NCBI GenBank assembly: GCA_965228475.1
Contig: OZ245817.1
Location: forward strand, 1,376,001-1,440,000
Origin: Myxococcota bacterium
GTDB lineage: Bacteria > Myxococcota_A > UBA9160 > JAFDDA01
Reading direction: 5' to 3'
Length of the DNA: 64,000 nucleotides
Each line of letters begins with the position of its first letter. The stretch's first letter is position 1. The position numbers were made by a program, and so were the translations under genes. The notes under the pieces were generated by a model, which did not search any database, was not told the DNA's origin, and saw only the letters and a program-made list of their open reading frames with translations. Positions 4,535 to 27,100 of the stretch are shown one piece after another.

Positions 4535-4597
4535 CGCACCGTTCCTCGCGCGGTTGCGCGACCACTATACAAGGAGCGGAGTCGCTGCGGGGCGCTC

Positions 4598-7264: not shown

Positions 7265-7312
7265 GCGCTTCTCCTCGGTCCATGCTCCGACTGACGGCTC
7301 AAACGGTCCTCC

Positions 7313-9079: not shown

Positions 9080-9595
9080 ATGGACGACCACGGGCCGAAG
9101 GTCCTCTTCCTCTGCACCGGGAACTCGGCGCGAAGCATCCTGGCCGAGGTGCTCCTGCGCGACCGGGCCGCCGGCCGGCTGCGGACCTGCAGCGCCGGGA
9201 GCCGGCCCGCGGGCCGCGTTCACCCGGAGGCGCTCGCCTGCCTCGAACGCCACGGGCACGCCACCGGCGGCCTGCGCAGCAAGAGCTGGGACGAATTCGC
9301 GGAGGGGGAGCCCGTCGACTTCGTGATCACGGTGTGCGGAAACGCCGCGGGCGAGACCTGTCCGGTGTGGCCCGGCCGGCCCCTCGGCGGACACTGGGGG
9401 CTTCCCGACCCTGCCGCGGCAGCGCCGGAAGAGCAGGGCGGCGCCTTCGAGCGGACCTACCGTGCCCTCGAAGCGCGCATCGACCGGTTCCTCGCCCTTC
9501 CGCTCGAAGCTCCGTCCGACCCCGCGGCCCTGAGGGTCGAAATCGAGAAGATCGGATCGCTCGAGCTCCCCGAGGGGGCGCCGGAAGGGGCCTAG
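9080..9595 (+). CDS. arsC: Arsenate reductase ArsC (LMW-PTP fold)
   Basis: C-terminal part of track ORF 7469..9595, with ATG at 9080. Motifs VLFLCTGNSARS, SAGS, VITVCGNAAGETCP, HWGLPDP. Confidence 0.85.
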   Translation: MDDHGPKVLFLCTGNSARSILAEVLLRDRAAGRLRTCSAGSRPAGRVHPEALACLERHGHATGGLRSKSWDEFAEGEPVDFVITVCGNAAGETCPVWPGRPLGGHWGLPDPAAAAPEEQGGAFERTYRALEARIDRFLALPLEAPSDPAALRVEIEKIGSLELPEGAPEGA

Positions 9596-9966: not shown

Positions 9967-10929
9967 ATGAATCGTCCCTTCGCATACTTGGCTGCCCTGC
10001 TTGCGAGTGGGGTGCTGGTCGTCGCGGGCACCGCATCGGCCGGCAACTACTCCATTCCGCCGTCCGAGGCCGAGCGCCGCCTCGGAAGCGAGCCCTTCGA
10101 GATCCTCGAGGCCAAGCGCACCGCTTCGGGTGTCGCCGGCGCCCAGCGCTGGAAGCTGCGCTTCCAGGATGGGAAGGTCATCAAGGCGAAGTGGAAGGCC
10201 GCGCCGCGCTACGTGGCCGACGGCTGGAACAACTCCCCCCGCCGCGAGATGGCCGCCTACGAGATCCAGAAGTGGTTCCTCGACGAAGAGGACTACATCG
10301 TCCCGCCGTCGGAGGTGCGCTGCATCCCCCTGGCGCAGATGCAGGCGATCGATTCGAACGCCCGGCCGACCCTGCTGAACACGAACTGCGTCTACGGTGT
10401 GCTCTCGCTCTGGCTGCAGGACGTCGAGGAGCCCGCCGAGATCTGGCACCCGGACCTCTTCGCCCAGGGCGGCTACTACCGCTACTCGATCGCCGCCGTG
10501 GACGTGCTGACGCTCCTGATCGGCCACCAGGACGGCCGGCCCGCCAACTTCCTCTGGTCGAAGGACGACCGCCGCCAGGTCTTCTCGATCGACAACGGCA
10601 TCTCCTTCCACGCGTTCCCCTACAACTTCCTCGTGCGCAACTGGAACGACCTGCGCGTGCCCGCGCTCTCGCGCCGGGTGATCGAGCGGCTCGACCGCGT
10701 CGGACCCGAGAAGATCAAGGCCCTCGGCATCCTGCGGCACCTCGAGCCGGACGAGAACGGCGTCCTCCAGGTGACGGCGCCCGACGGCAACCACGGCCCG
10801 AGCAAGGGCACCCGGGTCCGTGGCAGCACGCTGCAGTTCGGCCTCAGCAAGAGCGAAGTTCGCGAGGTCGAGGAGCGCCTCGGCCTGATCCTGCGCCTGG
10901 CCGAGAGCGGTCAGATCGACCTCTTCTGA
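9967..10929 (+). CDS. Secreted atypical kinase (PI3K/PI4K/HipA/CotH-like fold)
   Basis: Sec signal MNRPFAYLAALLASGVLVVAGTASA. Motifs AKWK (ATP Lys), REMAAYEI (alphaC Glu), IGHQDGRPANFL (catalytic loop D...N) and IDNGISF (DFG equivalent). Confidence 0.75.
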   Translation: MNRPFAYLAALLASGVLVVAGTASAGNYSIPPSEAERRLGSEPFEILEAKRTASGVAGAQRWKLRFQDGKVIKAKWKAAPRYVADGWNNSPRREMAAYEIQKWFLDEEDYIVPPSEVRCIPLAQMQAIDSNARPTLLNTNCVYGVLSLWLQDVEEPAEIWHPDLFAQGGYYRYSIAAVDVLTLLIGHQDGRPANFLWSKDDRRQVFSIDNGISFHAFPYNFLVRNWNDLRVPALSRRVIERLDRVGPEKIKALGILRHLEPDENGVLQVTAPDGNHGPSKGTRVRGSTLQFGLSKSEVREVEERLGLILRLAESGQIDLF

Positions 10930-10954
10930 GGCCCGCCCGCCCGGCCGGCGCCCC

Positions 10955-12328
10955 ATGAAACGAAGTCGCCTCGAGCGGGCTCTAGGGATCTTCACGGACG
11001 TTCGTCCGGGGGAAGGGCGCACCGCCCTCCTGATGTTCGCGAACGTCTTCCTGATCCTCTGCGCCTACTACTTCATCAAGCCCCTGCGCGACGGCTGGCT
11101 CGCCGGCGAGCAGATCGAAGGGTTCCAGGGGACGATCCGGGCGTACTCCTCCTTCGCCCAGGTCCTGATCCTGATCCCGGCGGTCTCGGCCTACGGCTGG
11201 CTGGCGCGGCGATACCGCGGCGCCGCCCTCATCACGCGCTCGACGATCTTCTGCATCGTCGTCCTGCTGCTCTTCTGGCTGATCTGGCCCGGCTTCCTGT
11301 TCGAGTTCCTGCCGGGCTCGGGCCTCGCCTTCTTCCTCTGGGTCGGCATCTTCAGCGTCTTCGTCGTGGCGCAGTTCTGGACCTTCGCGGCGGACCTCTA
11401 CAACGACGAACGGGGCCGGCGGCTGATGCCCCTCATCATGATCGGCGCGAACGCCGGCGGCGCCTTCGGGGCCGGGCTGCTCGGCCAGCTCGTCTCTGTC
11501 GAGGGCTTCCCGCAGCACGCGCTCCTGCTCGTCGCGATTCTCCCGCTTTCGGCGTCGATCTGGCTCTCGCGGCTGGCGGAGCGCCGCGGGGCGCTCGGAA
11601 CGGGCCTCGACCGGCCCGCGGCCACCCCGGCGGAGCGGGCCCAGAAGAAGCGCGGCTCCCTCGGGACGGTCTTCTCGGACCGCTTCCTGCTCGCCGTCGG
11701 CATGCTCACGATGCTCATGTTCTGGGTCATCTCGAACGGCGAAAACCTGCTCTGGCGCGTGATCCAGGAGGTCCTGGGCAACGAGGCCGCCCAGGCCGTG
11801 GCGAGCGAGGCCGGGCAGCGCGAATACATCCAGAAGGGAACCAGTCAGTTCTACAGCGGGTTCTATACGCAGGTGAACCTGGCGACGCTGCTCCTGCAGG
11901 GCTTCGTCGCGTCGCGGCTTCTGAAGTACGGAGGCTTCGCGACCATCCTGATGGCGCTGCCGGTGGTTTCCCTTCTCTCCTATGCGACCATGGCGCTCGT
12001 TCCCGCTCTCGCCATCGTGAAGCTGATGAAGATCGCCGAGAACTCGACCAACTACTCGCTGAACAACACCGCACGCCACGTCCTGTGGCTGCCGGCGACC
12101 GCCGAGATGCTCTACAAGGGCAAGCCGACGATCGACACGCTCTTCGTGCGCGCGGGGGACGGGCTCGCGGCCCTGACCATCTTCATCGGCATCCAGCAGC
12201 TCGCGCTGCCGACGACGACCCTGTTCTGGATGAACGCCGGGCTGGTCTTCGTCTGGCTCGGCGTGGCGTGGGGCGTGATCCGTCTGCATCGGCGCCTGGC
12301 GCGGGGAGCGCAAGCCGATGAAGCTTGA
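10955..12328 (+). CDS. NTT/TLC-family nucleotide (ATP/ADP) translocase
   Basis: VRPGE...AYYFIKPLRD, FWTFAADLY, YKGKPTIDTLFVRAGD; about 12 TM helices. Confidence 0.85.
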   Translation: MKRSRLERALGIFTDVRPGEGRTALLMFANVFLILCAYYFIKPLRDGWLAGEQIEGFQGTIRAYSSFAQVLILIPAVSAYGWLARRYRGAALITRSTIFCIVVLLLFWLIWPGFLFEFLPGSGLAFFLWVGIFSVFVVAQFWTFAADLYNDERGRRLMPLIMIGANAGGAFGAGLLGQLVSVEGFPQHALLLVAILPLSASIWLSRLAERRGALGTGLDRPAATPAERAQKKRGSLGTVFSDRFLLAVGMLTMLMFWVISNGENLLWRVIQEVLGNEAAQAVASEAGQREYIQKGTSQFYSGFYTQVNLATLLLQGFVASRLLKYGGFATILMALPVVSLLSYATMALVPALAIVKLMKIAENSTNYSLNNTARHVLWLPATAEMLYKGKPTIDTLFVRAGDGLAALTIFIGIQQLALPTTTLFWMNAGLVFVWLGVAWGVIRLHRRLARGAQADEA

Positions 12329-13322
12329 CCGGCGCTCGTTCCTCGCGGGCATCGCCGCGGGCCTCGTCGCTCCTCGGGTCTTCGCAGACGATCCGGGTGG
12401 CCCGGAGTCGATCCCGATCCCCGGGCAGAAGGACGTCGAGGTCTTCTCGGACCCCGTCGTCGAGATGATGCGCCGGCTCGACGAGATCGCGCCCTTCGAG
12501 GACATGGCGCCCCTGTGGAGCTACAAGAGCGAACCCCTCCAGGGCGAGCTCGACAAGCTCCTCGAGCGGCTGGCGCTCGCAAAGCACGTCCGCTCGAAGA
12601 AGCTCGCCGTGGCCTTCGTCGACGTCACGGAGCTCAAAGCACCGCGGGTCGCCGAGGTGAACGGTGACCGCATGATGTACGCGGCGAGCCTGCCGAAGAT
12701 CGCGGTCCTGCTCGGAGCCTTCGAGAAGATCGCCGAAGGCCGCATGAAGCTCACCCGCGAGGTGCGCAGCAGCCTCACGCGCATGATCCGCGAATCGTCG
12801 AACGTCGCCGCGACCGAGATGATGCAGCGGGTGGGCAAGCAGTACATCGCCCGCGTGCTCTTGAACCCCCGCTACCGGCTCTACGACCCGAAGCACAACG
12901 GCGGCCTGTGGGTCGGGAAGGACTACGCGAAGTCCGGCCTCTGGCGCCGCGATCCGCTCCACAACTTCTCCCACGGCGCGACACCGATGCAGGTCGCTCG
13001 TTTCTACTACCTGCTCCAGACCGGAAACCTGGTGACGCCCGAGTACAGCCTGGAGATGAAGAAGATCCTCGGTCACTCGGCGATCAACCACAAATTCATC
13101 AAGGGCCTCCAGCTCGTGAACCCGCGCGCGATGACCTTCCGCAAGTCCGGGAGCTGGCGCGACTACCACTCGGACAGCGTGCTCGTCGAAGGGGGAGGGC
13201 GCGCGTACATCGCGGTCGCCCTGGCGAACCACCGCGAGGGCGGAAACTGGCTGCGGCAGCTGATCATCGGGTTCGACGAAATCATCTACCGCGGGTCGAA
13301 CCGGTGGAGGCGATTCTTGTAG
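12318..13322 (+). CDS. Tat-exported class A beta-lactamase-like SxxK serine hydrolase
   Basis: Tat signal MKLDRRSFL; AASLPK (SxxK), SSN (SxN), KSG. Start overlaps the NTT 3' end by 11 nt. Confidence 0.85.
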   Translation: MKLDRRSFLAGIAAGLVAPRVFADDPGGPESIPIPGQKDVEVFSDPVVEMMRRLDEIAPFEDMAPLWSYKSEPLQGELDKLLERLALAKHVRSKKLAVAFVDVTELKAPRVAEVNGDRMMYAASLPKIAVLLGAFEKIAEGRMKLTREVRSSLTRMIRESSNVAATEMMQRVGKQYIARVLLNPRYRLYDPKHNGGLWVGKDYAKSGLWRRDPLHNFSHGATPMQVARFYYLLQTGNLVTPEYSLEMKKILGHSAINHKFIKGLQLVNPRAMTFRKSGSWRDYHSDSVLVEGGGRAYIAVALANHREGGNWLRQLIIGFDEIIYRGSNRWRRFL

Positions 13323-13326
13323 CGCC

Positions 13327-13452
13327 GGGCGGCTGGAGGGCGGGAGGGGCTCCGGCTCATGGCTCGCCCTGGCTACCTGCCGAGTCGCCTAGACCATCCG
13401 AGTGCGGGCTGCGCTTTACTTCCCCGGAGCCCCTCCCGCCCTCCAGCCGCCC
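13327..13452 (+). repeat. Structured dispersed element, copy 1
   Basis: Perfect 29-bp inverted repeat (13327-13355 / 13424-13452) enclosing TCATGGCTCGCCC-N36-GGGCTGCGCTTTACTTC. Confidence 0.9.
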
Positions 13453-13495
13453 TCCTCGGCAAGGCGTCACGGCCGGAACGAACCCGCTCACGCAA

Positions 13496-13530
13496 AACAG
13501 GGATCGAGCGCAAAGCGCTCGATCCCTGTT
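13496..13530. terminator. Probable bidirectional intrinsic terminator between convergent operons
   Basis: Perfect 16-bp stem aacagggatcgagcgc-aaa-gcgctcgatccctgtt, with A-rich left and T-rich right ends. Confidence 0.7.
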
Positions 13531-13571
13531 GTTTCACTCGCATGGCGGTGGTCCGCCGCGCCGCCTCGCAC

Positions 13572-13691
13572 CGCGGGTCGGGTCAGGGGGGCTTCAGCGA
13601 AGTAAAGCGCAGCCCGCACTCGGATGCGCCGGACGTCTCGGATGTTCGCCAGGGCGAGCCATGAGCGGAAGCCCCCCTGGCCCGACCCGCG
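13572..13691 (-). repeat. Structured dispersed element, copy 2
   Basis: 24-bp inverted repeat with 1 mismatch (13572-13595 / 13668-13691) enclosing the same core on the minus strand; 36-nt loop at 13616-13651. Confidence 0.9.
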
Positions 13692-13711
13692 CGCGCCGCC
13701 CCGACCTCGGA

Positions 13712-15091
13712 CTACTGCCCGAGCATCTCCTTCGCCTTCTTCCGCAGCTCCGGATCCGCCGCCATCGTCTTCAGTTTGGAGGCCATCTCCTGATCGTGGC
13801 GGTTCTGGATGAGGCGGTGGATGCGGGTGCCGAGGGTCTGGTGCTCGACGGCGGAGTTCTTGCGCAGGACGTTCGAGAGCACGACCGAGATGTAGTGGAG
13901 CGGCTGCTTCGAGTCCGTGGTCTCCACCACGGTCAGCGAGTTCATGAAGTTCTTGCGATTCCCCATGTACTTGCCGCACTCGAACCCCGGCTCCGGCTTG
14001 CAGCTGTAGAGCGAGCCGGACTTGAAGTAGAGGGCCGCGTCGGTGAGCGCGGGCGACGACGCGTAGCGGATGCGCCGGTCGGTCAGGTAGAGCAGGCGCT
14101 TGAGTTCGAGGCTCGACCACTCGTCGACGAGCTTGCCCTGCTCCATCAGCAGCGCGAAGCGGAGGAGCTCGCGCGGGGTGGCGATGCTGTTCGTGCCGGA
14201 GACCTTGTTCTTCCCGGTGCGGGTGAAGAAGCTGCCCTGGCGGAGCTTGCCCGTGTCGATGCCGTTGGCCTTGAGCGGGCCGCGGATCGCATCGAGGAAG
14301 ATCGTGCGCTTGCGCTTGGCCGGGGTCTCGCGGAAGAAGCGCGCGGCCTCCTCCGCCGTCGGCGGGTAGGCGTCTCCGTACTCCTTGAAGAGCATGACGT
14401 GCGCCATCAGCATGGCGGCGGCGGCGTTCGAGCTGCTCGAGCACATCCAGTCGAGATAGGTCCAGATGTTCGCGGTGTCGCCCTGGCGGATCGGGCGCTT
14501 CTCGAGCCGCTCCGCGCCCGGCTGCCAGAACGGAACGACGTGCTCGTCCTTGATGATGAACTCGTCGGCCGTGATCTGGACGTCGCGCAGGACTCGCTTG
14601 CGCGCCTCGATGTCGTCGGGGAAGCGGTCGGCCAGCGCCTGCATCCACGCCAGAGCGACGATGACCTTCCCGACCGAGCCCGGGTTCTGGATCTTGTCGC
14701 CGCCGACCTCGGCGTAGCTCGGGTTCGCGGGGTCCGTGATGTCGAGGACGGCGATGCCGTAGCGCGAGGCGTCGGCGTCGAGCAGCGCCTTCAGCTGCTT
14801 GGTGAATTCCGGGTCCGCGGCCGGAAGGGTGAAGTCCGGCCGGCTCGAGAGCTTCAGCCGGACGTCCTTGGTCGGCAGCAGCGCGCCGTCGAAGATGGCC
14901 CGGTTCTTCAGCAGGTGGTCCTGCGCCAACCGGTAGGCCTCGAGGCGGGTGATCCCGGTCTCGCGGTAGCCGTCGAGCGGATAGCCCGCGGCCGTACCCG
15001 CGATGGCAAGGGCGGCCACGCCGGCGAGTGCGCGGCGGCACCGGCCAGGGGCGAGGAAGGGCGAAGAGGAGAAGATCGAACGAGTCCGCAT
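13712..15091 (-). CDS. Secreted class A beta-lactamase-like SxxK serine hydrolase
   Basis: Signal-like RRALAGVAALAIAGTAAG; GSVGK (SxxK), SSN, FKSGS; CKPEPGFEC possible disulfide. Confidence 0.8.
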   Translation of the reverse strand: MRTRSIFSSSPFLAPGRCRRALAGVAALAIAGTAAGYPLDGYRETGITRLEAYRLAQDHLLKNRAIFDGALLPTKDVRLKLSSRPDFTLPAADPEFTKQLKALLDADASRYGIAVLDITDPANPSYAEVGGDKIQNPGSVGKVIVALAWMQALADRFPDDIEARKRVLRDVQITADEFIIKDEHVVPFWQPGAERLEKRPIRQGDTANIWTYLDWMCSSSSNAAAAMLMAHVMLFKEYGDAYPPTAEEAARFFRETPAKRKRTIFLDAIRGPLKANGIDTGKLRQGSFFTRTGKNKVSGTNSIATPRELLRFALLMEQGKLVDEWSSLELKRLLYLTDRRIRYASSPALTDAALYFKSGSLYSCKPEPGFECGKYMGNRKNFMNSLTVVETTDSKQPLHYISVVLSNVLRKNSAVEHQTLGTRIHRLIQNRHDQEMASKLKTMAADPELRKKAKEMLGQ

Positions 15092-15184
15092 GGGGCCTCC
15101 GCAGTGGGTCGGATGCTTTCGACGCAGGGGGAACGTACCAATTCAGCGGCGGGCGTCTTCGGCCGGGTTCCCAGGCTTCGAAGC

Positions 15185-18148
15185 TCAGTCCGCGGGGGCG
15201 CGGTCGAGCCGGATCTTGCGATTGCCCTTGCGGGCCAGCTCGGCGTCCAGGCCCGCCAGATAGCGGCTGCTCTTGGCGCCCTTGCTCTCCACGAAGGGCC
15301 GGATCTGGAGCAGGGTCAGGCGCCCGTCCTTGAAGGCGAACTCGACGTCGGCGGCCATGGGCTGGCCGTTCTCGTCCCGGAGCGAGGGAAAGCGCTTGGG
15401 GACGTCGCGCGCGAACCGGACGAGCTGGTCGATCTCGCCCTTCCGCAGCACGGCGGGCGTGCCGCTCGCGCGGACCCGGGTGACGCCGCCTTTCGGGTCG
15501 AGCACGGCCCGCCGCGGCGCCGTCGCCTGGGCGAGGAACTCGACCCGGCCGCTGCGGGTCTCGATGCGAAGCGACTCCGCCGCCTGCCCGTCGACGGCGC
15601 CGCCGACGCCCTCGTTCACGGCGACGGTGATGTAGTCCTGGCTGCCGCTGTCGACGTCGGCCGTGACCATCACGCCGGACTTCTCGGACGGAAAGCCGAG
15701 CTGGACGACGACGGCCGGGAAGACGTACTCGGGCTCTTCCATCTTGTCCTGCCGCCAGCCGTAGGCGCGCTCGGTGAAGGGCGAGGCCCAGACGAGGCCG
15801 ATCGATTCGAGGATGTTCTCGTAGCCGACCACGTTGGGGACCGTGAGGTTCAGGCCGGCCCCCGTGAAGCCCGGCAGATCCTCGACGTTCGTGTCGCTGC
15901 GGACGAACACGCCGTAGCTCCCGTCGCGTCCGAAGTGTTCTTCGAGCGTCTTGCGCAGCCCGTTGCGGAACTCGGGGCCGGGGTCGACGTCGTGGAGCCA
16001 GCCGCGCAGCCGCTTCAGGAACCTGCGCACCCGCTTGGCCTGGGCGGCCGGCTGGGCCTCGAGCTTGGCGATGGCCGCGTACTCGCCCTTCATCCAGTCG
16101 AAGACCGAGGGCCCGCCGGCCTCGAGGGGCTGGTCGAGGACCTTGCGGAAGGCGCCGAAGGGGATCACGAAGCCGTTCGGGACCTGATTCCCGAAGTGGT
16201 GCTTGAGCTCGCCGAGGTTCGCGCCCTTCGGGCCGGAGACGCGGCCCGAGTCCGCCGCGCGCAGGGCCGAGAGGGAGACGAAACCCGTCTGGGTGAGGTC
16301 GAGCTTCTCGAGGTCCGGGCGGATCACGAGGCCCGCGGAGGGCCCTTCCTTGCCGAAGATCTCGTTCCAGCGCGCCCCGTCGTCGGAGAAGTGGACCACG
16401 CCGCTCGGGCTCACGGCGAGCACGACCCGCTTGCCCATGCGCGTCCGCACTTCCTTCAGGTGCTCGTTGCCAATCACCACGTTCGGAATTCCGAGGTTGC
16501 GGGCCAGCAGCTGGACGTGCGAGAGCGAGCTGCCCTCGCCGCGGGTCAGGATGCCCGCGACGGGCGGAAGGTCCGAGATGGTCTCCGGCAGGAGGAAGAC
16601 GCCCTGGCGATCGAAGCCGCTCGCGCCGGCGTTCTCGGAGGGCTCGTAGAGGCGTCCGCGGACGAGCCCCGGGTTCAGCGCCCGGAGCCCCGCGCCGACG
16701 CGTTGACCGAAGAGTTCGTGCTCGATGCCCGCTTCGCGGTTGGCGTCCTTTACGAGGCTGTCGACGACGGCGCCGTAGAAGAGGAGCGGGCTGCCGCGCA
16801 GGCGGTCCTGGGCAAACAGATGGGTCTTCGGCTCGATGGCGGCGAAGCGCGCGGTCGCTTCGGAGAAGTGGAACTCGATCCAGCGCGAGCCCCACTCGGG
16901 CATGCGCGCGAGGAAGCGGAGTTCCTCGCGGTAGCGGTCGACGGTGGTGTCGTTGCTCTTGGTCAGCCGCTTGAGGCTCGCGACGACGCCCTCGCGGTGG
17001 CGCTCGGTGATGAAGCCCGCGCCGTAGAGCGCCGAGGTCCCCTCGCCGAGCCACGCGAGGCGTTCCTTGCGCGGAACGCCCGAGAGCCGCGCGATCAGGT
17101 CGTTGCCGACGGCGTAGGCCTCGCGCTCGAGCTCGAGGCTCGTGAGCAGGAGGGCCAGGGCCGCTTCGGGATCCTTCTCGTCGGGGAAGTGGCGGCGGAG
17201 CTGGGCCAGGGCCCGGCTCGCGATGCGCAGACGCTGGACGTCCTCGGCGCCGGGCGCCAGGAGCGCCGCGCCGTGGCGCAGGTTCTTCGCGAACTTCGCG
17301 TCCGAGGTGGCGGTGGCGAGGCGCTCGAGGGCGGCACTCGCCCGCGGCGCGTAGAGGGCGTCGATGTCGTCGGCGAGCTTCTGGTAGTCGGCGCGGGCCG
17401 CGGCCTTGCCCTTGGCCCGCGCATGGGCGCGCACGCGCTCCGCGTCGCCGGCATCGGGGAAGCCGTGGATCTTGGCGCGCAGGTTCTTGAAGCCCGGGTC
17501 CTTGTCCGCCACGACGACGGCCAGCTGCCGGACCGCCTGGGCCGAGACCGCGTCGCCGAGCAGGGGCAGGGCGCGGGCGGTCTCGCGGATCAGCAGGAAG
17601 CGGGCCGGATCGCGCCAGGCCGGGTCGGCCAGCATGGCGAGCAGGACTTCGCGGGCCGTCGCCTCTTCGTCCTCGGCCTGGAGCGCGCCGCGGTAGTTGC
17701 GCGCGCCGCGGAAGATCCAGCCCGTATCCGCAGCCCGCAGGAACTTCTCGACGATGACCTGGGAGAGCTGGTCGACGTCCGGATCCGAGCCGACGAAATC
17801 CTCGGGTTCGAGTTCGGCGACGACCGTTCCGACGTAGTAGCCGTCGGCCCGCATCGCCTTCACGCGGTCGTTCCACTCGCCGTGCTGGATGCCGCCGCCC
17901 CGCTCGCCGCCGCAGGGATACGGTCTGGGCGGGTGGATCGTGCCATCGGCGCAGAACCAGCGAATGCGCTTGAAGGGCCCCTTCGGGGAGCGCTTCATCT
18001 CCTTCACCCAGCCCGCGTAGCGCTCGGCGTTCTTGAAGCCCTTGCGCTTGGCGGCGGCCTCGGCGGAAGGGGCGGGGAAGAGCAGGGCCGGAGCCAGCAG
18101 GAGAGCCAGCACCAGCTTCGGGACCGACCGGCGGACGGGGCGCGACAT
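15185..18148 (-). CDS. Secreted PEP-utiliser/PPDK-family dikinase (phospho-His domain followed by C-terminal ATP-grasp)
   Basis: ATG at 18148 gives signal peptide MSRPVRRSVPKLVLALLLAPALLFPAPSAEA. AGILTRGEGSSLSHVQLLARNLGIP is the phospho-His domain. GPKGANLGEL, VPNGFVIP, VRSDTNVED, GAGL and DVEFA...LLQIRP mark the nucleotide-binding domain. Confidence 0.85.
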   Translation of the reverse strand: MSRPVRRSVPKLVLALLLAPALLFPAPSAEAAAKRKGFKNAERYAGWVKEMKRSPKGPFKRIRWFCADGTIHPPRPYPCGGERGGGIQHGEWNDRVKAMRADGYYVGTVVAELEPEDFVGSDPDVDQLSQVIVEKFLRAADTGWIFRGARNYRGALQAEDEEATAREVLLAMLADPAWRDPARFLLIRETARALPLLGDAVSAQAVRQLAVVVADKDPGFKNLRAKIHGFPDAGDAERVRAHARAKGKAAARADYQKLADDIDALYAPRASAALERLATATSDAKFAKNLRHGAALLAPGAEDVQRLRIASRALAQLRRHFPDEKDPEAALALLLTSLELEREAYAVGNDLIARLSGVPRKERLAWLGEGTSALYGAGFITERHREGVVASLKRLTKSNDTTVDRYREELRFLARMPEWGSRWIEFHFSEATARFAAIEPKTHLFAQDRLRGSPLLFYGAVVDSLVKDANREAGIEHELFGQRVGAGLRALNPGLVRGRLYEPSENAGASGFDRQGVFLLPETISDLPPVAGILTRGEGSSLSHVQLLARNLGIPNVVIGNEHLKEVRTRMGKRVVLAVSPSGVVHFSDDGARWNEIFGKEGPSAGLVIRPDLEKLDLTQTGFVSLSALRAADSGRVSGPKGANLGELKHHFGNQVPNGFVIPFGAFRKVLDQPLEAGGPSVFDWMKGEYAAIAKLEAQPAAQAKRVRRFLKRLRGWLHDVDPGPEFRNGLRKTLEEHFGRDGSYGVFVRSDTNVEDLPGFTGAGLNLTVPNVVGYENILESIGLVWASPFTERAYGWRQDKMEEPEYVFPAVVVQLGFPSEKSGVMVTADVDSGSQDYITVAVNEGVGGAVDGQAAESLRIETRSGRVEFLAQATAPRRAVLDPKGGVTRVRASGTPAVLRKGEIDQLVRFARDVPKRFPSLRDENGQPMAADVEFAFKDGRLTLLQIRPFVESKGAKSSRYLAGLDAELARKGNRKIRLDRAPAD

Positions 18149-18264
18149 CAGGCGCAGCTTACCCGATAACCCGCCGTTTCGGGTGGCTTTCCCCTGGGCG
18201 CTCGGGCCCGCAGGGCGGGCGGGCTGCGGCACAGGGTAAGGGGTGGGACGCCCTGCGGGGTGAT

Positions 18265-21200
18265 ATGGTGCGTGCCGTCGCCATGTTGCAGCGCCTGGGG
18301 TTCGATCGGCACGAGAGCCGCGTGCTCGTGTGGGGAGCGATCACGCTCTTCCTCACGGGGTGGGCAGACGTTTCTCTGAAGAACGTCTCGGAAGCCTACT
18401 TCGTGAACAGCGTCGGACCCGAGCGGCTTCCCCTCGTGTTCCTCGCCAGTTCGGCCCTCCTGGTCGGGACGACGTGGGCTCTGGGCATCCTGATGGCTCG
18501 GAGCCAGCGGCTGCGTCTCCTGCCGCGCCTGCTCGGTGTGCTGGCCGTCGCGATCCTTCCCCTGTGGTGGCTGATCCTGAACCACGAGGGTGGAACGGAC
18601 CGCGAGATCAAGAGCGCCTACGGCCTGCTCCTGATCGCCTCGAAGCAGGTCCAGGCGCTGGCGCTCCTGTCGTTCTGGGCCGCCATCAACGATCTGGTGA
18701 ACGCCCGCCAGGCCAAGCGGGTGTTCGCTCCGCTGATGGCCGGCTGGACGCTGGGAACGATCCTCGGAAGCTTCGCATCGGATCCGCTCGCGGGCTGGCT
18801 GGGCGTTCCGGCGCTGGTCCCCGTCTCATCGGCAATGCTGATCCTCGCGGGCGTCGCGACCTATCCGCTCCGCCGCGGGCTGCCTACCCGGCTCCACGTC
18901 GGCACGCGACGACGCCTCCTCGACCTCGTGCGACCCAAGGAAGAGCGCTCGGTGTTCGGCGCGGGCGCGACGGGGTCGCCGGAGGCCGGAAGCGCCGAGG
19001 CCCCGGCGAGCGTGCGCGCGCTCTGGCGGGAGAGTGCCCTGTTCCGGCTGCTCTTCGTCACGGTGCTGCTGTCCGGGATGCTCGGCCCGATGCTCTATTT
19101 CCAGTTCCAGTGGGTCGCGGATGCGGCGACACCGGAAGGCGACGAGGGCCTGGAAGGCCTCCTCCATCTCTACTCGCTCTTCCGCGGCTGGGTGAACGTC
19201 GCCATCCTCGTCGCTCAGCTCACGGTCACCTCGACGCTCTACCGTCGTTTCGGAATCCCGCTGTCCGTCCTGATCTCGCCGCTCACCTATCTCGCCGGCT
19301 TCTTCGGGCTCTCCCGGAGCTTCGCGCTGCCGATGGGCATCGGTGCGATGTCGCTGACGAAGCTCCAGGACAACGCCGTCTTCGATCCGGCCTCCCGGGT
19401 GCTCTACAACCTCTTCCCGGACCGCCACCGGGCCCGTGCCGGGTCCTTCCTCGACGGCCCCGTGAAGCGGGGCGCCGGGGCGCTCGGCAACCTCGTGGTG
19501 ATCGTCGCACTCGAGGCCGCGTCCGTTGCCTACGTCGGCGTGGCCGGCATCGGCCTCGCGCTGATCTGGCTGCTCGCGGCGGTCGTGCTCTGGCAGACCT
19601 ATCCGCGCCTGCTGCTCGCGGCCGCGTCGAACCGCCGGACGTCGGGCGGCGAGTGGGAAGAGGGCATGCTCGACCCCTCGACGGTGCGCGCCCTGAACCC
19701 GCATCTGCTCGACCCCGACCCCGGGCGCTGTGCCCTGGCCATCGGCCTGCTCGAGGAGGCGCGCCCCGAGCTGGCGATCCCCGCGCTCGTGCACGCCTAC
19801 GGAGGGGCCCACGGGGCAACGCGCCCCCTCCTCCTCACGGCGCTCGAGGATGCGCTCGACAAGACGGTCACGACGCCGGTGCGCGACGCCGCGGCGGCCG
19901 CCGAGCTCGACCGGATTCTCGCCGAGACGCCGGATCTCCCGGCCCTCGACCGCTCCCGGCTCGTGCAGTGCTACGGCCGCGTGAGGCCGGAGGACGACCG
20001 CTCGCCGCTGCTCACCCACGCCCTCCACCACGAGGTCGCGAGCGTCCGCCTCGCCGCCGCGGGTGCCCTCGATCACGACGACCTCGACGACCGCCTGCGC
20101 GAGGCCGCGGCCAGCAGCGACCTCGCCGAACGCACCATCGCCCGCCGCGAGCTGCGCGCCGCGCTCCTGTGCGACGCCGAGGATCCGGCCTGGGAACAGC
20201 GGCTCGCGATGCTCGTCGCCATGCTCGACGACCCGGAGGAGCGCCGCCCCGCAGCGGAGGCCCTGGCCGACGTCGCGCGCCGCCACGGCGAGCGCGTCGT
20301 GCCGATCACCGAGGCCGTGCTCGAGCGGCGACACGAGACCGACGTCGCGACGCGCCGCGCGCTGCTGCGCTTCGCCGGCCACGCGGGCTGCGTCGAGCAC
20401 GCGGGCTGGCTGGTCGACCACCTCGCGTCGGACGACGAGTCCGAGGCCGATGCCGCCCGCGAAGGTCTGGTCGCCATGGGGGCCGGCATCACCGACATCC
20501 TGTTGAAGGAGGCGTCCCACGGCCGGCGCAGCAAGCGCGATGCGATCCTGCCGCTCCTGCGCGACCTCCACGTCGACCAGGACGAACTCTGGGAACTCTA
20601 CGAGCGCGAGCTCGCCGGCATCCGCAAGCTCATCGTCCAGCACCACGTGATGCGCGCGACGCCGGGCCTCGAGCTGCTCGAGCAGCGGCTCGACGAGCGC
20701 ATCGACGAAGGCCTGCACACGGCGCTCCTGCTGCTCGCCGGCCTGCGGGACCGGGACGAGTACGAGAGCCTCGCCGAGAGCCTCCCCGGCACGCCGAGCG
20801 GCCGGCGCCGGGCGACCCTGGTCGAGGTGCTCGAGGAGATCGCGACCGCCCGCGAAAAGACCGAGCTCCTGCCGTTGTTGGACGAGGATCTCGACAAGCG
20901 CTGCGCCCGGGCCGCCGGCGCGCTCGGCATCCTCGTCCCGAGCGACGAAGAGGTCCTCCAGCAGACCATGAAGAGCTCCGACGAGCTGACCCGCGTGCTG
21001 GTTGCCGGTTGCCTGCGGACGCTCGGCATGGGGCCCGTGCCCGGTGCGGCGCCCGGCGCAGTTCCATTGGCTCCCTCCGCCGATCTGGAGGAAACTGCGG
21101 ACGTGCTGAGCCCCACGGAGATCGCGCTGCAGCTCAAGGGTCTGCCCATGTTCGATGGGCTCACGACCCGGCAGCTCATGGACCTCGCCCAGGTGGTGAG

Positions 21201-21534
21201 CGAAGTGACCCATGCGCCCGACGCCACCGTCGTCAGCGAGGGCGGCATGAACGAGAGCATGTTCCTGATCGTGGACGGCAAGGTCGAGGTGCGGAAGCAG
21301 GGCCGGCGGGTCGCCGAGCTCGGCCCGGGCGAGTTCTTCGGGGAGATGTCGGTGCTCGAGCGCGCGCGCCCGAGCGCCGACGTGATCACCACGGAGACGG
21401 CGCGCCTGCTCTGCCTTCAGCGCGCGGATCTCTTCCGCCTGATGGAAGAGTTCCCGACCATCCCGATCATCATGTGCCAGACGCTCTCGCGCCGGATGCG
21501 CGAGCTGCTCGAGACGCGCTCCGAGCCTGCCTAG
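18265..21534 (+). CDS. NTT-like MFS transporter fused to HEAT repeats and a cNMP-binding domain
   Basis: About 12 N-terminal TM helices with RQAKRVFAP. A helical HEAT-like middle region follows, then C-terminal MFLIVDGKVEV...GEFFGEMSVL...RPSADV (cNMP fold). Confidence 0.8.
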   Translation: MVRAVAMLQRLGFDRHESRVLVWGAITLFLTGWADVSLKNVSEAYFVNSVGPERLPLVFLASSALLVGTTWALGILMARSQRLRLLPRLLGVLAVAILPLWWLILNHEGGTDREIKSAYGLLLIASKQVQALALLSFWAAINDLVNARQAKRVFAPLMAGWTLGTILGSFASDPLAGWLGVPALVPVSSAMLILAGVATYPLRRGLPTRLHVGTRRRLLDLVRPKEERSVFGAGATGSPEAGSAEAPASVRALWRESALFRLLFVTVLLSGMLGPMLYFQFQWVADAATPEGDEGLEGLLHLYSLFRGWVNVAILVAQLTVTSTLYRRFGIPLSVLISPLTYLAGFFGLSRSFALPMGIGAMSLTKLQDNAVFDPASRVLYNLFPDRHRARAGSFLDGPVKRGAGALGNLVVIVALEAASVAYVGVAGIGLALIWLLAAVVLWQTYPRLLLAAASNRRTSGGEWEEGMLDPSTVRALNPHLLDPDPGRCALAIGLLEEARPELAIPALVHAYGGAHGATRPLLLTALEDALDKTVTTPVRDAAAAAELDRILAETPDLPALDRSRLVQCYGRVRPEDDRSPLLTHALHHEVASVRLAAAGALDHDDLDDRLREAAASSDLAERTIARRELRAALLCDAEDPAWEQRLAMLVAMLDDPEERRPAAEALADVARRHGERVVPITEAVLERRHETDVATRRALLRFAGHAGCVEHAGWLVDHLASDDESEADAAREGLVAMGAGITDILLKEASHGRRSKRDAILPLLRDLHVDQDELWELYERELAGIRKLIVQHHVMRATPGLELLEQRLDERIDEGLHTALLLLAGLRDRDEYESLAESLPGTPSGRRRATLVEVLEEIATAREKTELLPLLDEDLDKRCARAAGALGILVPSDEEVLQQTMKSSDELTRVLVAGCLRTLGMGPVPGAAPGAVPLAPSADLEETADVLSPTEIALQLKGLPMFDGLTTRQLMDLAQVVSEVTHAPDATVVSEGGMNESMFLIVDGKVEVRKQGRRVAELGPGEFFGEMSVLERARPSADVITTETARLLCLQRADLFRLMEEFPTIPIIMCQTLSRRMRELLETRSEPA

Positions 21535-21569: not shown

Positions 21570-22409
21570 TTAGTTGAGATTGATGACGGTGCCGGAACCG
21601 GTGTTACCACCCGGCGCGGGCGGGTCCGGATCGACGGTCGGGTCCACCGGGTCGAACTCCGGAATGAACGGATCCTCGAGCTCGTCGTCGTCGTACGGCT
21701 CGCCCGGATCGTTCCCCGGGTCGGTCGGATCGTTGCCGGTCGTCGAGGAAGAGTCCCCGCCGCCCGCCACGTCGTCGTCGAGGGGCTGATCGAAGTCGTC
21801 GCCGTTGCCGGCCTGGAAGGGGTCGGCCGGATTCCGGAACGGGTCGCCCGGCGCCTTGTCGCCGTAGGCGACGACGCAGAAGCCCGGGCGCGGCTCGGCG
21901 GTCCCGTACTCGTTCTTGACGACGATGCCGCCCGAGATCAGGCAGGCTTCCCACTCGCCGCTCGTGCTGCCCTTGCGCACCTCGAAGTCCGTGCCCTTCA
22001 CGCCGACGGCGGCGGTCGGGGTGTGCACCTCGATCTTGGTGCTTCCGCCGAAGGCGTCGCCCACGGTCGCGCGCAGGCGGCCCCGCACCTGACGCAGGAT
22101 CGAGACTTCCTTCGTGGCGGCGGCGCCGACGTGGAAGGTCTCGATGCGAAGCTCGGTGTCTTCGTCGATCTGGAGCAGGGTGTCGTCGGTGAGGACGATC
22201 TTGGCGCTCGAGTCGAGGCCCGTGCGGATCCGGTCGCCGATCGCGACGGAGCCGTCGCGCTGGGCGGCGGCGAACACGCCGGTGCCGTTGTCGATCTGGA
22301 CGTCGCCGTTGGCGGCGGCGAGGAAGCCGATGTCCTTCGCCGAGGCCAGGCCCGAGAGGCCGAGGGCCGCGGCGGCGATGAGGCTCGTAGCGAGAGAGTT
22401 GCGACGCAC
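21570..22409 (-). CDS. Secreted FecR-domain protein with acidic Pro-rich tail
   Basis: GTG at 22409 with GGAGGA SD; signal peptide; GDRIRTG, TPTAAVGVKGTDF; D/P-rich C-terminus. Confidence 0.8.
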   Translation of the reverse strand: MRRNSLATSLIAAAALGLSGLASAKDIGFLAAANGDVQIDNGTGVFAAAQRDGSVAIGDRIRTGLDSSAKIVLTDDTLLQIDEDTELRIETFHVGAAATKEVSILRQVRGRLRATVGDAFGGSTKIEVHTPTAAVGVKGTDFEVRKGSTSGEWEACLISGGIVVKNEYGTAEPRPGFCVVAYGDKAPGDPFRNPADPFQAGNGDDFDQPLDDDVAGGGDSSSTTGNDPTDPGNDPGEPYDDDELEDPFIPEFDPVDPTVDPDPPAPGGNTGSGTVINLN

Positions 22410-22574
22410 GATGGTTCCTCCGGTCCGGCCTTCCTGGGCCGGGATGCTCACTCCGGCACGATCCATTGCCGGGTCTGTCGTTCGTGCACGTCCGACGCCG
22501 CGGGGTGTCACGAATTCAGGAAAGGGCCGATCCGTTGGCGTTTCGCCCCGGCAGGCCACCCGCAGCCGGCCTGC

Positions 22575-23870
22575 TCAAACGGCCGAGATCTTAGGGAAAT
22601 TCCGCCCGATGGCGAAGATGAGGCCCATCAGCCGCACCATCTCGGCGTTCAGGATGGGTTTCCCGCTCGTCAGGACCGCGGCGGAGAGGTCCCGCTCGGG
22701 GTCGGCCCAGGAGAAGATGTTCGTGTAGCCGAGGTGGCCGAAGGCGTGGGGCGTGTCCCAGCCGAACAAGGAGACCGGCCACTGCCCGAGCATGAAGCCG
22801 AGGCCGTACCGGATGGGGGCGCCGAGGGTGAGGTCGAGCTCCCAGTAGCTCTGCTCGACCGTCGCGCGGTGCACGGTGCGCGGTTCGAAGATGGACTGGC
22901 CGCGGAACTGCCCTTCGTCGAGCAGGCATTGGTAGAAGGCCGAGAGCTCCTCGGCCGTCGCCACGCCGTTGGCGGCCGGGGCGATGCCAGCGAGGAAGCG
23001 CGGGTCCGAGGCCATGGGGATCACGTCCTCGTAGCCGACGCCGAGCGCGCGGCGCAGGAGCTGGGCCACCGGCGGGCCGGGCGGGAGGCCGGTGACGGCG
23101 TCCTCCGCGAGCTTGGGCGCGTCCTCGGGTGAGCAGCCGTAGTTCAGGAAACGCAGGCCGAGGGGGTCGCCGATCTCCTTGCGCAGCACTTCGCGGATGT
23201 CCTGCCCCGTCGCGCGCCGCACCACCTCTCCGAGAACGAATCCGCCGGTCACGGCGTGGTAGGCGAGGCGCCGCCCGGGCCGCATCAAGAGCGGCATCTC
23301 GGCGATCAGGGCGAGGATCTCCTCGGGCCGTTCGAGCAGCTCGAGATCCATCGCTCCGGGAGGAACGTTGGCGATGCCCGCCCGGTGCGCGAGCACGTGG
23401 GCCAGCGTGATCAGCTCCTTGTCCGGGCGCCGGAACTCCGGGAGGTAGTCGCAGACGCGGTCGTCGATGTGGAGCACGCCCTGGTCGTCGAGCTTGTGCA
23501 GGATCATGGCCGTGATGGCCTTGCTCGCGGAGTAGATGCGGAAGGGCGTGTCGGTCGTGGCCGGGATGCGCTCGGCGTCCGGGGCCGCGTCCGGCGTGCC
23601 TCCGCGCGCGTAGCCGAGGGCGCGGTTCAGGACGATCGCGCCGCGGCGCCGGATGCAGATCTGCACGGCCGGGTAGAGCCCCGTCCGGTAGAGGTCCCGC
23701 GCCGCGTCGAAGACGGACTCGACGGCGTGCTTGCTCGTTCCGCCGTCCGAGGGCGCGGACTCCGGCCCGATGCTCGTGACCGCGTCGAGGTCCGAGGGGA
23801 TGCGACAGAGCCGCTTGAAGGGGCGCGTCGGAAGGGTGGCGGCGCGGAGCGCTGCGTCGGTCCAGTCCAT
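22575..23870 (-). CDS. Class C beta-lactamase-family esterase (LipE-like)
   Basis: IYSASK, LAHRAG, YHA, FGHLG. Confidence 0.85.
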   Translation of the reverse strand: MDWTDAALRAATLPTRPFKRLCRIPSDLDAVTSIGPESAPSDGGTSKHAVESVFDAARDLYRTGLYPAVQICIRRRGAIVLNRALGYARGGTPDAAPDAERIPATTDTPFRIYSASKAITAMILHKLDDQGVLHIDDRVCDYLPEFRRPDKELITLAHVLAHRAGIANVPPGAMDLELLERPEEILALIAEMPLLMRPGRRLAYHAVTGGFVLGEVVRRATGQDIREVLRKEIGDPLGLRFLNYGCSPEDAPKLAEDAVTGLPPGPPVAQLLRRALGVGYEDVIPMASDPRFLAGIAPAANGVATAEELSAFYQCLLDEGQFRGQSIFEPRTVHRATVEQSYWELDLTLGAPIRYGLGFMLGQWPVSLFGWDTPHAFGHLGYTNIFSWADPERDLSAAVLTSGKPILNAEMVRLMGLIFAIGRNFPKISAV

Positions 23871-24627: not shown

Positions 24628-25419
24628 CTAGCGGTCTCGGAAGTCGGGTTTGCGCTTCTCGAGGAAGGCGCGCAGGCCCTCCTGCGCGTCCTCGGTCTGG
24701 GAGGCGGCCGCCATGACCTCGCCGGCGTGGTCGTAGGCGGCGCGGGTGTCGAGGTCGATCTGGCGATAGAAGGCGCGTTTTCCTGTCGCCTTCGCGAGCC
24801 GGCTGCCGCGGGTGGCCCGGGCGAGCAGGGCGCGCGTCTCCCGCGCCACCTCGCCGTCCTCCACCACGCGGTTCACGAGGCCCCAGGCGTGGGCGGTCTC
24901 GGCGTCGATCGGGTCGCCGGTGAGGAGCATCTCGAGGGCGTGCTTGCGCCCGACGGCCCGGGCGAGGGCGACGCCGGGCGTGGTGCAGAACCAGCCGCCG
25001 CGGCCGCCCGGCACCGCGAAGCGCGAACTCCGGCCGCAGACGGCGAGGTCGCAGGTCGAGACGAGCTGGCAGCCGGCGGCGGTGGCGAGGCCTTCGACCT
25101 GGGCGATCACGGGTTGGGGCATCGACTGCACGAGCTGCATCATCTCGGCGCAGACGTCGAGCAGGCGCTGCATCTCGGGGAGCTTCCGCCCGTCCATGTC
25201 CGCGAAGTCGTGGCCGGCCGAGAACACCGGGCCTTCGGCAGCGACGACGAGGCCGCGCGCATCGCCCCCGGCGACTTCGCGCAGGGCCGCGAGGATCTCC
25301 CGGATCACGCTCTCGGCCAGGGCGTTGCGTCGCTCGGGGTTCGCCAGGGTGAGGACGGCGAAGTCGTCCTCGCGGGTCAGGCGGATGCTCTCGAAGCTCA
25401 TGCCGGTCTCCTCGCTCAT
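24628..25419 (-). CDS. Enoyl-CoA hydratase/isomerase family protein
   Basis: RNAL, FSAGHD, ATAAGCQLV..CDL, EMLLTG. Confidence 0.9.
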   Translation of the reverse strand: MSEETGMSFESIRLTREDDFAVLTLANPERRNALAESVIREILAALREVAGGDARGLVVAAEGPVFSAGHDFADMDGRKLPEMQRLLDVCAEMMQLVQSMPQPVIAQVEGLATAAGCQLVSTCDLAVCGRSSRFAVPGGRGGWFCTTPGVALARAVGRKHALEMLLTGDPIDAETAHAWGLVNRVVEDGEVARETRALLARATRGSRLAKATGKRAFYRQIDLDTRAAYDHAGEVMAAASQTEDAQEGLRAFLEKRKPDFRDR

Positions 25420-25444
25420 GCCGGTGTCTTCGGGTTCGCCGGGG

Positions 25445-26941: not shown

Positions 26942-27100
26942 GCCAGCCCCTCCGGCGCTCTCGAGACCGGAGGATCCTATCCCAGCCGGCCCAGCTGGCC
27001 GCCCGAAAGGCGAAGGCCCCGCGGGGAGATCCGCCTCCAGGGGTTGACGGGACGCGCCGTCTGGCGCACACCTACTCCCCTTCCCAACGGGGTGTTTTTC

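Follow-up and report, generated by a model that had tools for sequence, protein, structure and literature searches.

The Gram-negative periplasm is held in textbooks to be free of ATP, envelope chemistry being run there on lipid-linked phosphates, phosphatidylethanolamine (PE) or proton-motive machines. In eukaryotes, Fam20 kinases (Fam20C, Fam20B and Fam20A) and type II PI4-kinases act in a compartment that is topologically outside the cytosol and depend on imported ATP, the ATP/ADP exchanger of the endoplasmic reticulum (ER) being SLC35B1/AXER. The 'energy-parasite' transporters of the NTT family and their HEAT-cNMP (cyclic nucleotide) fusions in free-living bacteria have been a further puzzle since 2017: NTT-HEAT and NTT-HEAT-cNBD (cyclic-nucleotide-binding domain) fusions were described as broadly conserved and uncharacterised, with no function assigned, and either control of ATP uptake or transfer across thylakoids was proposed for them (Major, Embley & Williams 2017, PMC5381601). 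That paper contains neither the word 'periplasm' nor the word 'export' and draws no link to exported kinases. Full-text literature searches, which covered few subscription journals, turned up no account of exported kinases or dikinases linked to NTTs and none of a system dedicated to supplying the periplasm with ATP; term searches of a Fam20 review (PMC7948968) and of a 2026 preprint on AAC ancestry returned neither. Here we analyse a 64,000-nucleotide stretch from a Myxococcota bacterium (assembly GCA_965228475.1, contig OZ245817.1, positions 1,376,001 to 1,440,000; the whole stretch is called the window below), in which a cluster of six genes joins both puzzles: two or more unrelated ATP-dependent folds with export signals are tied, and partly fused, to NTT transporters. 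The cluster encodes a predicted exported kinase-fold protein (KIN), a predicted exported dikinase (DIK), two enzymes of the class A beta-lactamase/penicillin-binding-protein (PBP) fold (BLA1 and BLA2), a short NTT (NTT1) and a long NTT paralogue (NTT-HEAT-cNMP). NTT transporters were found in conserved association with PBP-fold enzymes and with exported phosphotransferase folds that depend on nucleotides, and our preferred reading, with a probability of roughly 0.55, is that these genes would form a conserved envelope phosphorylation module in which cNMP-gated NTT antiporters export ATP for the phosphorylation of the envelope.

A scan of one genome per species returned 210 stretches with KIN relatives, the best 80 of which gave 79 loci. 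NTT-family open reading frames (ORFs), located by iterative profile searches of six-frame ORFs, were present in 41 of the 79 loci, and in 25 of them an NTT was the immediate neighbour of KIN (19 downstream on the same strand, 3 convergent and 3 divergent), the same-strand pairs often overlapping or sitting 4 nt apart. Layout A, consisting of KIN, NTT1, BLA, DIK and NTT-HEAT-cNMP, whole or partial, was found in 16 loci; layout B, in which NTT-HEAT is followed by a cNMP protein, KIN and an NTT, in 10, with a fused NTT-HEAT-cNMP gene upstream in 4 further loci; and layout C, KIN followed by an NTT, in 10. The labels of the KIN loci were Myxococcota, Binatia, Syntrophobacterales, Gemmatimonadota, Bacteroidota, Terriglobales and spirochaete bins. 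The KIN-NTT linkage is beyond chance. An earlier sequence-only reading of the window had staked its proposal of an ATP-export and phosphorylation system on the genes recurring together elsewhere, and they did so in many genomes and across phylum-level labels.

Within a sample of 401 genomes of the window's phylum, KIN was present in 19, of which 18 also had an NTT, the exception being a genome in which KIN was represented by broken fragments only; among the 382 genomes without KIN, 180 had an NTT. The N-terminal domain of DIK gave strong matches in 21 of the 401 genomes (two more were marginal, E ~3e-4). All 21 had an NTT, which lay at most 6 kb away on the same contig in 17; in the remaining 4 the NTT matches listed were on other contigs of fragmented assemblies. 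Ten genomes had DIK without KIN and eight had KIN without DIK, and DIK and KIN therefore track NTT genes independently. In other lineages, an NTT was found elsewhere in the genome in 5 of 5 genomes whose KIN locus lacked one, and TLC, the Pfam family of the NTTs, was found in none of 14 control genomes. GC3-filtered gene calls (GC3, third-position GC) and Pfam revealed no common partner of KIN in the loci without an NTT (132 ORFs scanned). In six loci with no NTT nearby (L058, L063, L066, L068, L071 and L076), whose KIN was 32-36% identical to that of the window, a homologue of the MTTB-family trimethylamine methyltransferase adjoined KIN, with an AhpC/TSA gene upstream in three of them (L063, L066 and L068); this MTTB-type neighbourhood is a conserved alternative context of KIN.

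Several of the partners were also found fused. BLA and KIN occupied one ORF, with a single signal peptide and the KIN signal lost, in five loci (L010, L013, L016, L025 and L026) and were likewise fused in protein P0370; in L003 and L004 they were separate genes with a signal each. The fusion supports a shared pathway for the two proteins and does not say what the substrate is. In two Gemmatimonadota-labelled proteins (P0418 and P0446), a signal peptide and KIN were joined to a metallophosphoesterase with GDxHG, GDxxDRG and GNHE motifs, which we take to be the PPP/ApaH-type signature; by this reading of the motifs the two would be exported kinase-phosphatases or kinase-nucleotide hydrolases. 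A predicted metagenomic protein of 804 aa (P0456) combined an NTT domain (TLC 32.8 bits), an extra hydrophobic segment, which would place KIN outside the membrane, and KIN itself.

Because the window has ~70% G+C, the raw ORF lists were crowded with spurious frames, and GC3, by which one frame was favoured per stretch, was used for frame choice. Values of 0.83-0.98 backed six gene frames within 9967-21534 (Table 1), the same as those of the sequence-only reading, and the gene order, the 25-nt gap, the 11-nt overlap and the convergent and divergent units that it had claimed were all reproduced by the GC3-backed coordinates. The starts of NTT-HEAT-cNMP and DIK were 116 nt apart, and the spacer between the convergent BLA1 and BLA2 measured 389 nt. 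None of the six proteins was named by NCBIfam at family cut-offs. Consensus scans of the locus found no promoter-like and two terminator-like sites, fewer than expected from shuffling.

Table 1. Genes of the cluster, neighbouring features of the window and features of related loci (positions are those of the window unless a locus or contig name precedes them)
Feature	Position	Strand	Length	Description
KIN	9967-10929	+	320 aa	predicted exported atypical kinase-fold protein, Fam20/PI4KII-like
NTT1	10955-12328	+	457 aa	short NTT/TLC-family membrane transporter; 25-nt gap after KIN
BLA1	12318-13322	+	334 aa	predicted exported class-A-beta-lactamase/PBP-fold serine enzyme, twin-arginine signal; 11-nt overlap with NTT1
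BLA2	13712-15091	-	459 aa	second predicted exported beta-lactamase/PBP-fold serine enzyme; 93 nt downstream of DIK, same strand
DIK	15185-18148	-	987 aa from MSRPVRR	predicted exported dikinase; GTG start form extends to 18232
NTT-HEAT-cNMP	18265-21534	+	1089 aa	long NTT paralogue; divergent from DIK
Cyclase	2615-4564	-		TPR-S/adenylate-guanylate cyclase protein
MMPL	4601-7312	-		MMPL transporter
LMW-PTP/ArsC-like	9164-9595	+		no signal peptide
FecR	21570-22559	-		FecR-family protein
PF00144	22575-23870	-		beta-lactamase-fold protein, class C type
L24/KOW frame	24770-27424	+	885 codons	stop-free frame, ribosomal L24/KOW domain at its end
Third NTT paralogue	G000:C1:2257782-2259161	-		same genome, locus L082
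U1 lipoprotein	L113:9331-11121
U1 lipoprotein	L115:11955-13715
U1 lipoprotein	L120:8089-9846
U1 lipoprotein	L122:7053-9095
U1 lipoprotein	L124:6065-7858
U1 lipoprotein	L130:5188-6942
PAP2 phosphatase	L114:8828-9553			between both NTT genes
PAP2 phosphatase	L115:5202-6164
PAP2 phosphatase	L116:15484-16440
PAP2 phosphatase	L120:5385-6728
Y_phosphatase3	L010:8417-9262			after NTT-HEAT-cNMP
Y_phosphatase3	L013:15694-16560			after NTT-HEAT-cNMP
Y_phosphatase3	L017:2173-3027			after NTT-HEAT-cNMP
Y_phosphatase3	L026:11987-12859			after NTT-HEAT-cNMP
Y_phosphatase3 lipoprotein	L029:11014-12060			flanks KIN
PhoX alkaline phosphatase	L029:7370-9421			flanks KIN

By sequence profile the window NTTs are homologues of the NTT family. 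Along most of the length, a profile built from NTT1 and its relatives matched two solved ADP,ATP carriers, 9j3n with E 2.4e-36 and 9j3j with E 1.4e-29; the relatives cleared the Pfam TLC cut-off with 51-71 bits, and in NTT1 the surroundings of the conserved Lys (K390), with the motif Y-x-x-K-x-x-x-D-x-x-x-x-R, aligned with KGKAAID..R in the solved carrier. At profile level the homology to the NTTs (TLC, TC 2.A.12) of Chlamydiae, Rickettsiales and plastids extends over nearly the full length, including the C-terminal Lys/Asp/Arg motif, and the mechanism is presumably antiport. Unlike those transporters, the window NTTs belong to a free-living host with a 5-Mb genome, score below or near the Pfam and TIGRFAM cut-offs (TIGR00769 16.7 bits versus 387), are linked to exported ATP-using enzymes, in one case carry a HEAT-cNMP tail, and are proposed to work in the net outward direction.

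The long paralogue had no TLC match at E <= 0.01; its N-terminal 470 aa, however, retrieved NTT1-type ORFs with jackhmmer, its middle region retrieved 16 relatives that passed both Pfam HEAT_2 and TLC, and residues 982-1062 matched cNMP_binding with 57.2 bits. Of the NTT-HEAT-cNMP architecture assigned by the sequence-only reading, the NTT region and the cNMP domain were thus recovered; the HEAT part stands through homology to the HEAT_2-passing relatives, Pfam at E <= 0.01 having found no HEAT repeats in the window protein itself. With a predicted NTT domain, cytoplasmic helical repeats and a C-terminal cyclic-nucleotide-binding domain, the gene fits the definition of the NTT-HEAT-cNBD clade, and its architecture is that of the NTT-HEAT(-cNBD) proteins described in PMC5381601 and of the split NTT-HEAT and cNMP gene pairs in related loci. 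The genes upstream of the cluster include one for a TPR-S/adenylate-guanylate cyclase protein, which could be the cNMP source for the cNMP domain of the long NTT, and one for an MMPL transporter; an MMPL gene flanks NTT-HEAT-cNMP in locus L027 too.

KIN had no match in Pfam or NCBIfam at standard search. Among 5,911 candidates scored, 169 relatives were found at E <= 1e-3, almost all unnamed, and the family comprised 648 clusters in the library at 50% identity. In an alignment of 28 relatives K75, E94, D189 and N194 were invariant and D209 was at least 90% conserved; by motif position, the catalytic Lys, the catalytic-loop Asp and Asn and the metal-binding Asp of atypical kinases appear to be present. 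The AlphaFold2 model (pLDDT 90) matched in Foldseek searches of the PDB the type II kinase PI4KIIalpha (4hnd, E 5e-7), Fam20C (5yh0, E 6e-7, TM 0.52) and 5wrr (E 4e-6), each with probability 1.00 and with TM 0.41-0.54. Weak Pfam matches pointed the same way, PI3_PI4_kinase (PF00454) in 19 of the 28 relatives (best E 1.3e-5) and Fam20C (PF06702) in 7 of 28 (best E 2.2e-3), and the nearest named Atlas clusters (0.94 and 0.93) agreed with this relationship. According to the model KIN is of the protein-kinase-like fold, Fam20/PI4KII-like; it fell outside PF00454 (14.2 bits versus a cut-off of 27.1) and PF06702, and the fold match together with the sub-cut-off scores therefore makes it a separate family with an atypical-kinase fold. 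With the Fam20 kinases and type II PI4-kinases, its best structural matches, KIN has the Lys, Asp, Asn, Asp catalytic pattern in common, and it would share their location outside the cytosol and their dependence on imported ATP. It differs from them in being bacterial, in its low similarity (11-17% sequence identity, TM 0.41-0.54) and in its transporter partner, an MFS-type NTT and not an SLC35 protein. Prediction of a complex between BLA1 (residues 25-334) and KIN (residues 27-320) gave ipSAE 0.00 in both runs, which is neutral on binding.

DIK scored 108.4 bits with PPDK_N and 24.6 bits with PEP-utilizers (cut-off 23.1), and consists, in order, of a signal peptide, a helical N-domain, a phospho-His swivel domain and a C-terminal ATP-grasp domain. 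The GEGSSLSH motif, whose His is residue 544, was invariant in 32 sequences; with the ATP-grasp nucleotide domain and the catalytic His of the swivel domain, the predicted protein has the hallmarks of a PEP-utilising dikinase. The ATP-grasp domain resembled chains of PEP synthase (PPS) and of rifampin phosphotransferase (RPH) (E 7e-19 to 1e-14), the latter (5hv1 and 5fbs) matching about as well as PEP synthase. Residues 1-520 had no Pfam match; the model of this N-domain was mostly helical (pLDDT 82.5), and it found nothing at E <= 0.001 in the PDB by Foldseek (best 0.18) and a best Z of 8.3 over 91 residues in a wide VIA-align search, which is in the generic range for helical models. The aligned relatives, belonging to a family of more than 2,000 homologues, share a conserved Cys pair in the N-terminus.

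Three identities were considered for DIK and rejected. It is not a PEP synthase or PPDK proper, there being no third Pfam domain for binding of PEP or pyruvate and an NCBIfam PPS score of 100.9 versus 598 bits; nor is it an RPH equivalog, which the score of 94.1 versus 999 bits, the opposite domain order and the unrelated N-domain speak against. With these enzymes it has the ATP-grasp (PPDK_N) and swivel His domains in common, but their order is reversed, the PEP/pyruvate-binding domain is missing and a signal peptide is added. The succession of a substrate-binding N-terminal region, a phospho-His and a C-terminal ATP-grasp domain is presumably that of the plant glucan, water dikinase, and the chemistry of DIK would be dikinase-type like that of glucan, water dikinase and phosphoglucan, water dikinase; the likeness is one of domain order only. 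Pfam found no CBM45 or CBM20, no carbohydrate-binding module was detected by Pfam or NCBIfam, and in contrast to the plant enzyme the N-domain is an unmatched helical fold and the protein carries an export signal.

BLA1 matched Beta-lactamase2 (PF13354) with 63 bits and BLA2 with 24.9 bits (cut-off 22). The relatives of BLA1 keep SLPK, SSN and KSG and those of BLA2 SVGK, SSN and KSG; the SxxK, SxN and KSG triad was retained in 17 of 17 aligned ORFs covering it, from three subfamilies (BLA1, BLA2 and a third). By the PF13354 match and the motif triad, both are assigned to the class A beta-lactamase/PBP fold. Mean column identity over 28 relatives of BLA1, whose family has more than 6,800 homologues, was 66%, and its profile matched no PDB sequence at E <= 1e-3, hence no solved relative by sequence profile. 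The two proteins share the Pfam family and the triads with class A beta-lactamases and low-molecular-weight PBPs, and differ from them in that they are conserved alongside NTT, DIK and KIN as partners and, in some genomes, are fused to KIN.

That the four soluble proteins carry export signals, as the sequence-only reading had claimed, was borne out; conservation of these signals was a further point on which it had staked its proposal, and the signals, of Sec, Tat and lipobox types, recurred in the relatives. The N-terminus of KIN reads MNRPFAYLAALLASGVLVVAGTASA followed by GN, the signal of DIK MSRPVRRSVPKLVLALLLAPALLFPAPSAEA followed by AA, and that of BLA1 MKLDRRSFLAGIAAGLVAPRVFA followed by DD; the last is of the twin-arginine type, beginning with MKLDRRSFLAG and containing the motif RRSFLAG, and BLA2 has a Sec-type N-terminus. 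A hydrophobic N-terminal extension ahead of the conserved domain was present in 27 of 28 aligned KIN relatives, 7-8 of them with a lipobox-like L-x-x-C. Signal-like starts were found in all 12 full-length DIK ORFs from 12 related loci, which belong to two subfamilies, ~55% and ~31% identical to the window DIK, and in 28 of 28 aligned BLA1 relatives, the twin-arginine motif being limited to the closer ones (RRxFL-like motif in 33 of 120). A hydropathy rule was positive for 109 of 120 KIN, 111 of 120 DIK and 114 of 120 BLA1 N-termini. The conserved Cys pair C119 and C141 of KIN relatives and that of the DIK N-terminus would fit an oxidising compartment.

Another 20 NTT regions, drawn from 19 of the phylum's genomes, hand-picked from the hit list (not a random sample) and covering at most 4.5 kb around the NTT genes, were inspected. 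Proteins with cNMP-binding domains were found in 5 of the 20, a Fam20C-domain lipoprotein in L121 (35.9 bits versus a cut-off of 26.8), and Omp85-like barrels among the neighbours. In 4 of 20 regions PAP2-superfamily membrane phosphatases adjoined pairs of a short and a long NTT, in L114 lying between both NTT genes. A lipoprotein of ~585 aa without a Pfam family, here called U1, stood beside the NTT gene in 6 of 20; its invariant K181, D312, N317 and D338 form a K...HxDxxxxN...DFG-like pattern (LLKFD ... NHFDSREQN ... LDFGD), and U1 is possibly a third family of exported kinases with a link to NTTs. A kinase identity was not demonstrable: Pfam found HipA_2 in only 1 of 6 members (E 0.029), PDB sequences yielded nothing relevant, hhalign of U1 against KIN gave a probability of 0.4% (E 0.14), and the nearest named Atlas clusters (0.77-0.80) are leads only. 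A signal-bearing ORF of ~450-520 aa that looks like an outer-membrane barrel accompanied U1 in L113, L122, L124 and L130, and an Omp85-type ORF lay upstream of it in L120. Among the KIN loci, a Y_phosphatase3 gene without a signal peptide followed NTT-HEAT-cNMP in four (L010, L013, L017 and L026), and in the Kiloniellales-labelled L029 KIN was flanked by a lipoprotein Y_phosphatase3 and a PhoX alkaline phosphatase.

Of the remaining neighbours in the window, an LMW-PTP/ArsC-like gene precedes the cluster, and a FecR-family gene and a PF00144 beta-lactamase-fold gene lie directly beyond it, which brings the serine beta-lactamase-fold genes to three inside 12 kb. FecR-family proteins typically partner with ECF sigma factors. 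The L24/KOW frame farther downstream is probably the start of a ribosomal-protein operon, its open frame being artefactually long because of the high G+C.

All of the evidence is comparative or comes from structural prediction, and the envelope phosphorylation module that we prefer would work as follows. The inner-membrane NTTs would exchange cytoplasmic ATP for periplasmic ADP and/or AMP plus Pi released by the exported enzymes; such an antiporter would run outwards because of the steep cytoplasm-to-periplasm ATP/ADP gradient, and cAMP or cGMP, acting on the HEAT-cNMP tail at the cytoplasmic face, would gate the long NTT. KIN would consume ATP and release ADP, and DIK would transfer the beta-phosphate of ATP via His544 to a substrate held on its helical N-domain, releasing AMP and Pi. 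The PBP-fold enzymes would process the same envelope substrate as KIN and DIK; the likeliest candidates for it are a polymer of the cell wall or surface that bears peptides or esters, and an exported protein. Candidate targets of the phosphorylation are cell-wall and surface polymers, envelope proteins, as the PPP-type fusion hints, and incoming small molecules.

A number of observations weigh against this module. The dikinase would yield AMP, which is not recycled by an ATP/ADP exchanger, and the cluster showed no exported adenylate kinase; porins could also let exported ATP escape, and phosphatases of the periplasm could destroy it. We know of no transport assay for this NTT clade, the characterised NTTs are importers, some of them carrying NAD or other nucleotides, and NTT1 itself scored 19.3 bits with Pfam TLC (PF03219), below the cut-off of 21. 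The third NTT paralogue of the same genome, with 58.5 bits above that cut-off, adjoins the glucose-6-phosphate isomerase gene (pgi) and has no exported enzyme beside it. Signal peptides were assessed by eye and by a crude hydropathy rule, which was positive in 0 to 116 of 120 internal windows as well; given this poor specificity, the argument for export therefore rests on position, lipoboxes and the Tat motif. As to linkage, the 79 loci, being the best 80 of 210 stretches, are biased to close relatives, 38 of them had no NTT in the DNA examined, with heterogeneous neighbours, and NTTs are common in the phylum (at least 198 of 401 genomes), which makes genome-level co-occurrence weak evidence; because related genomes are not independent and the NTT is so common, the adjacency data outweigh the genome-level counts. 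The NTT-KIN fusion P0456 is a singleton predicted protein, encoded on a single contig of 8.9 kb, and an error of assembly or gene calling may have merged two neighbouring genes there.

It is rather unlikely that the linkage is real and the NTTs are not ATP exporters, moving instead NAD, a nucleotide sugar, a dinucleoside polyphosphate or GTP/UTP, or importing products of the exported enzymes, with the phosphoryl donor otherwise obtained. The window NTTs are indeed very distant from the characterised ones (TLC 19 bits; TIGR00769 16.7 versus 387), one fusion partner of KIN is, by our reading of its motifs, a PPP/ApaH-type phosphoesterase from a group that includes nucleotide hydrolases, and the NTT family includes non-ATP carriers (PMC5381601). 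Yet ATP is bound by every characterised relative of the two exported enzyme folds (Fam20, PI4K, PPS, RPH and GWD, glucan, water dikinase), the K390 motif of NTT1 aligns with the solved ADP,ATP carrier, and the cluster encodes no alternative donor pathway. A quite unlikely reading makes DIK, KIN and the BLAs an NTT-fed periplasmic detoxification battery that inactivates incoming antibiotics or other small molecules and leaves the cell's own envelope alone. The 66% mean column identity of BLA1 fits a fixed endogenous substrate, its profile found no solved beta-lactamase at E <= 1e-3, the fusion of KIN to a PPP-type phosphatase suggests reversible modification, and DIK lies far below the RPH equivalog cut-off, with the opposite domain order and an unrelated N-domain; in favour of the battery stand the ATP-grasp domain of DIK, which matches rifampin phosphotransferase about as well as PEP synthase, the two PF13354 proteins of the cluster with the PF00144 and FecR-family genes next door (21570-23870), and the fact that all known enzyme classes involved include resistance enzymes.

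Very unlikely, in our estimate, is predatory energy scavenging, with KIN and DIK as secreted effectors acting in prey or lysates and the NTTs importing prey nucleotides. Many of the loci are labelled Myxococcota, a phylum that includes predators, and all characterised NTTs import nucleotides; but the lipobox would anchor those KIN variants that have one in membranes of the producer itself, and the predicted NTT-TM (transmembrane)-KIN protein P0456 also argues for tethering; BLA1 carries a Tat signal, coupling within the operon is tight, with genes overlapping or 4 nt apart, no secretion-system genes are present in the cluster, and the system also occurs in bins labelled Binatia, Gemmatimonadota, Marinimicrobia, Bacteroidota and Syntrophobacterales, groups that are not known to be predatory. 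That the genes are chance neighbours, or are held together by lineage-specific synteny without a shared function, was already disfavoured and is extremely improbable: although 38 of 79 KIN loci have no NTT nearby and NTTs are frequent in the phylum, the adjacency recurs with varied gene orders, strands and phylum-level labels, KIN and DIK, unrelated exported enzyme families, both track NTT genes, and fusions exist.

Extended beyond this cluster, the ATP-export reading becomes more tentative, at slightly less than even odds: free-living bacteria of several phyla would possess an ATP-energised periplasm, in which cNMP-gated NTTs export ATP, retrieve ADP/AMP and feed KIN, DIK, Fam20C-domain and further kinase-like lipoproteins alongside exported phosphatases and PBP-fold enzymes. 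If true, this would be a bacterial counterpart of the phosphorylation that takes place in the lumen of the eukaryotic ER and Golgi, and it would give the puzzling NTT genes of free-living bacteria a physiological role. Confirmation of ATP export would establish an ATP-dependent periplasmic phosphorylation system, provide a function for many 'hypothetical' proteins and make the six-gene cluster a tractable test bed.

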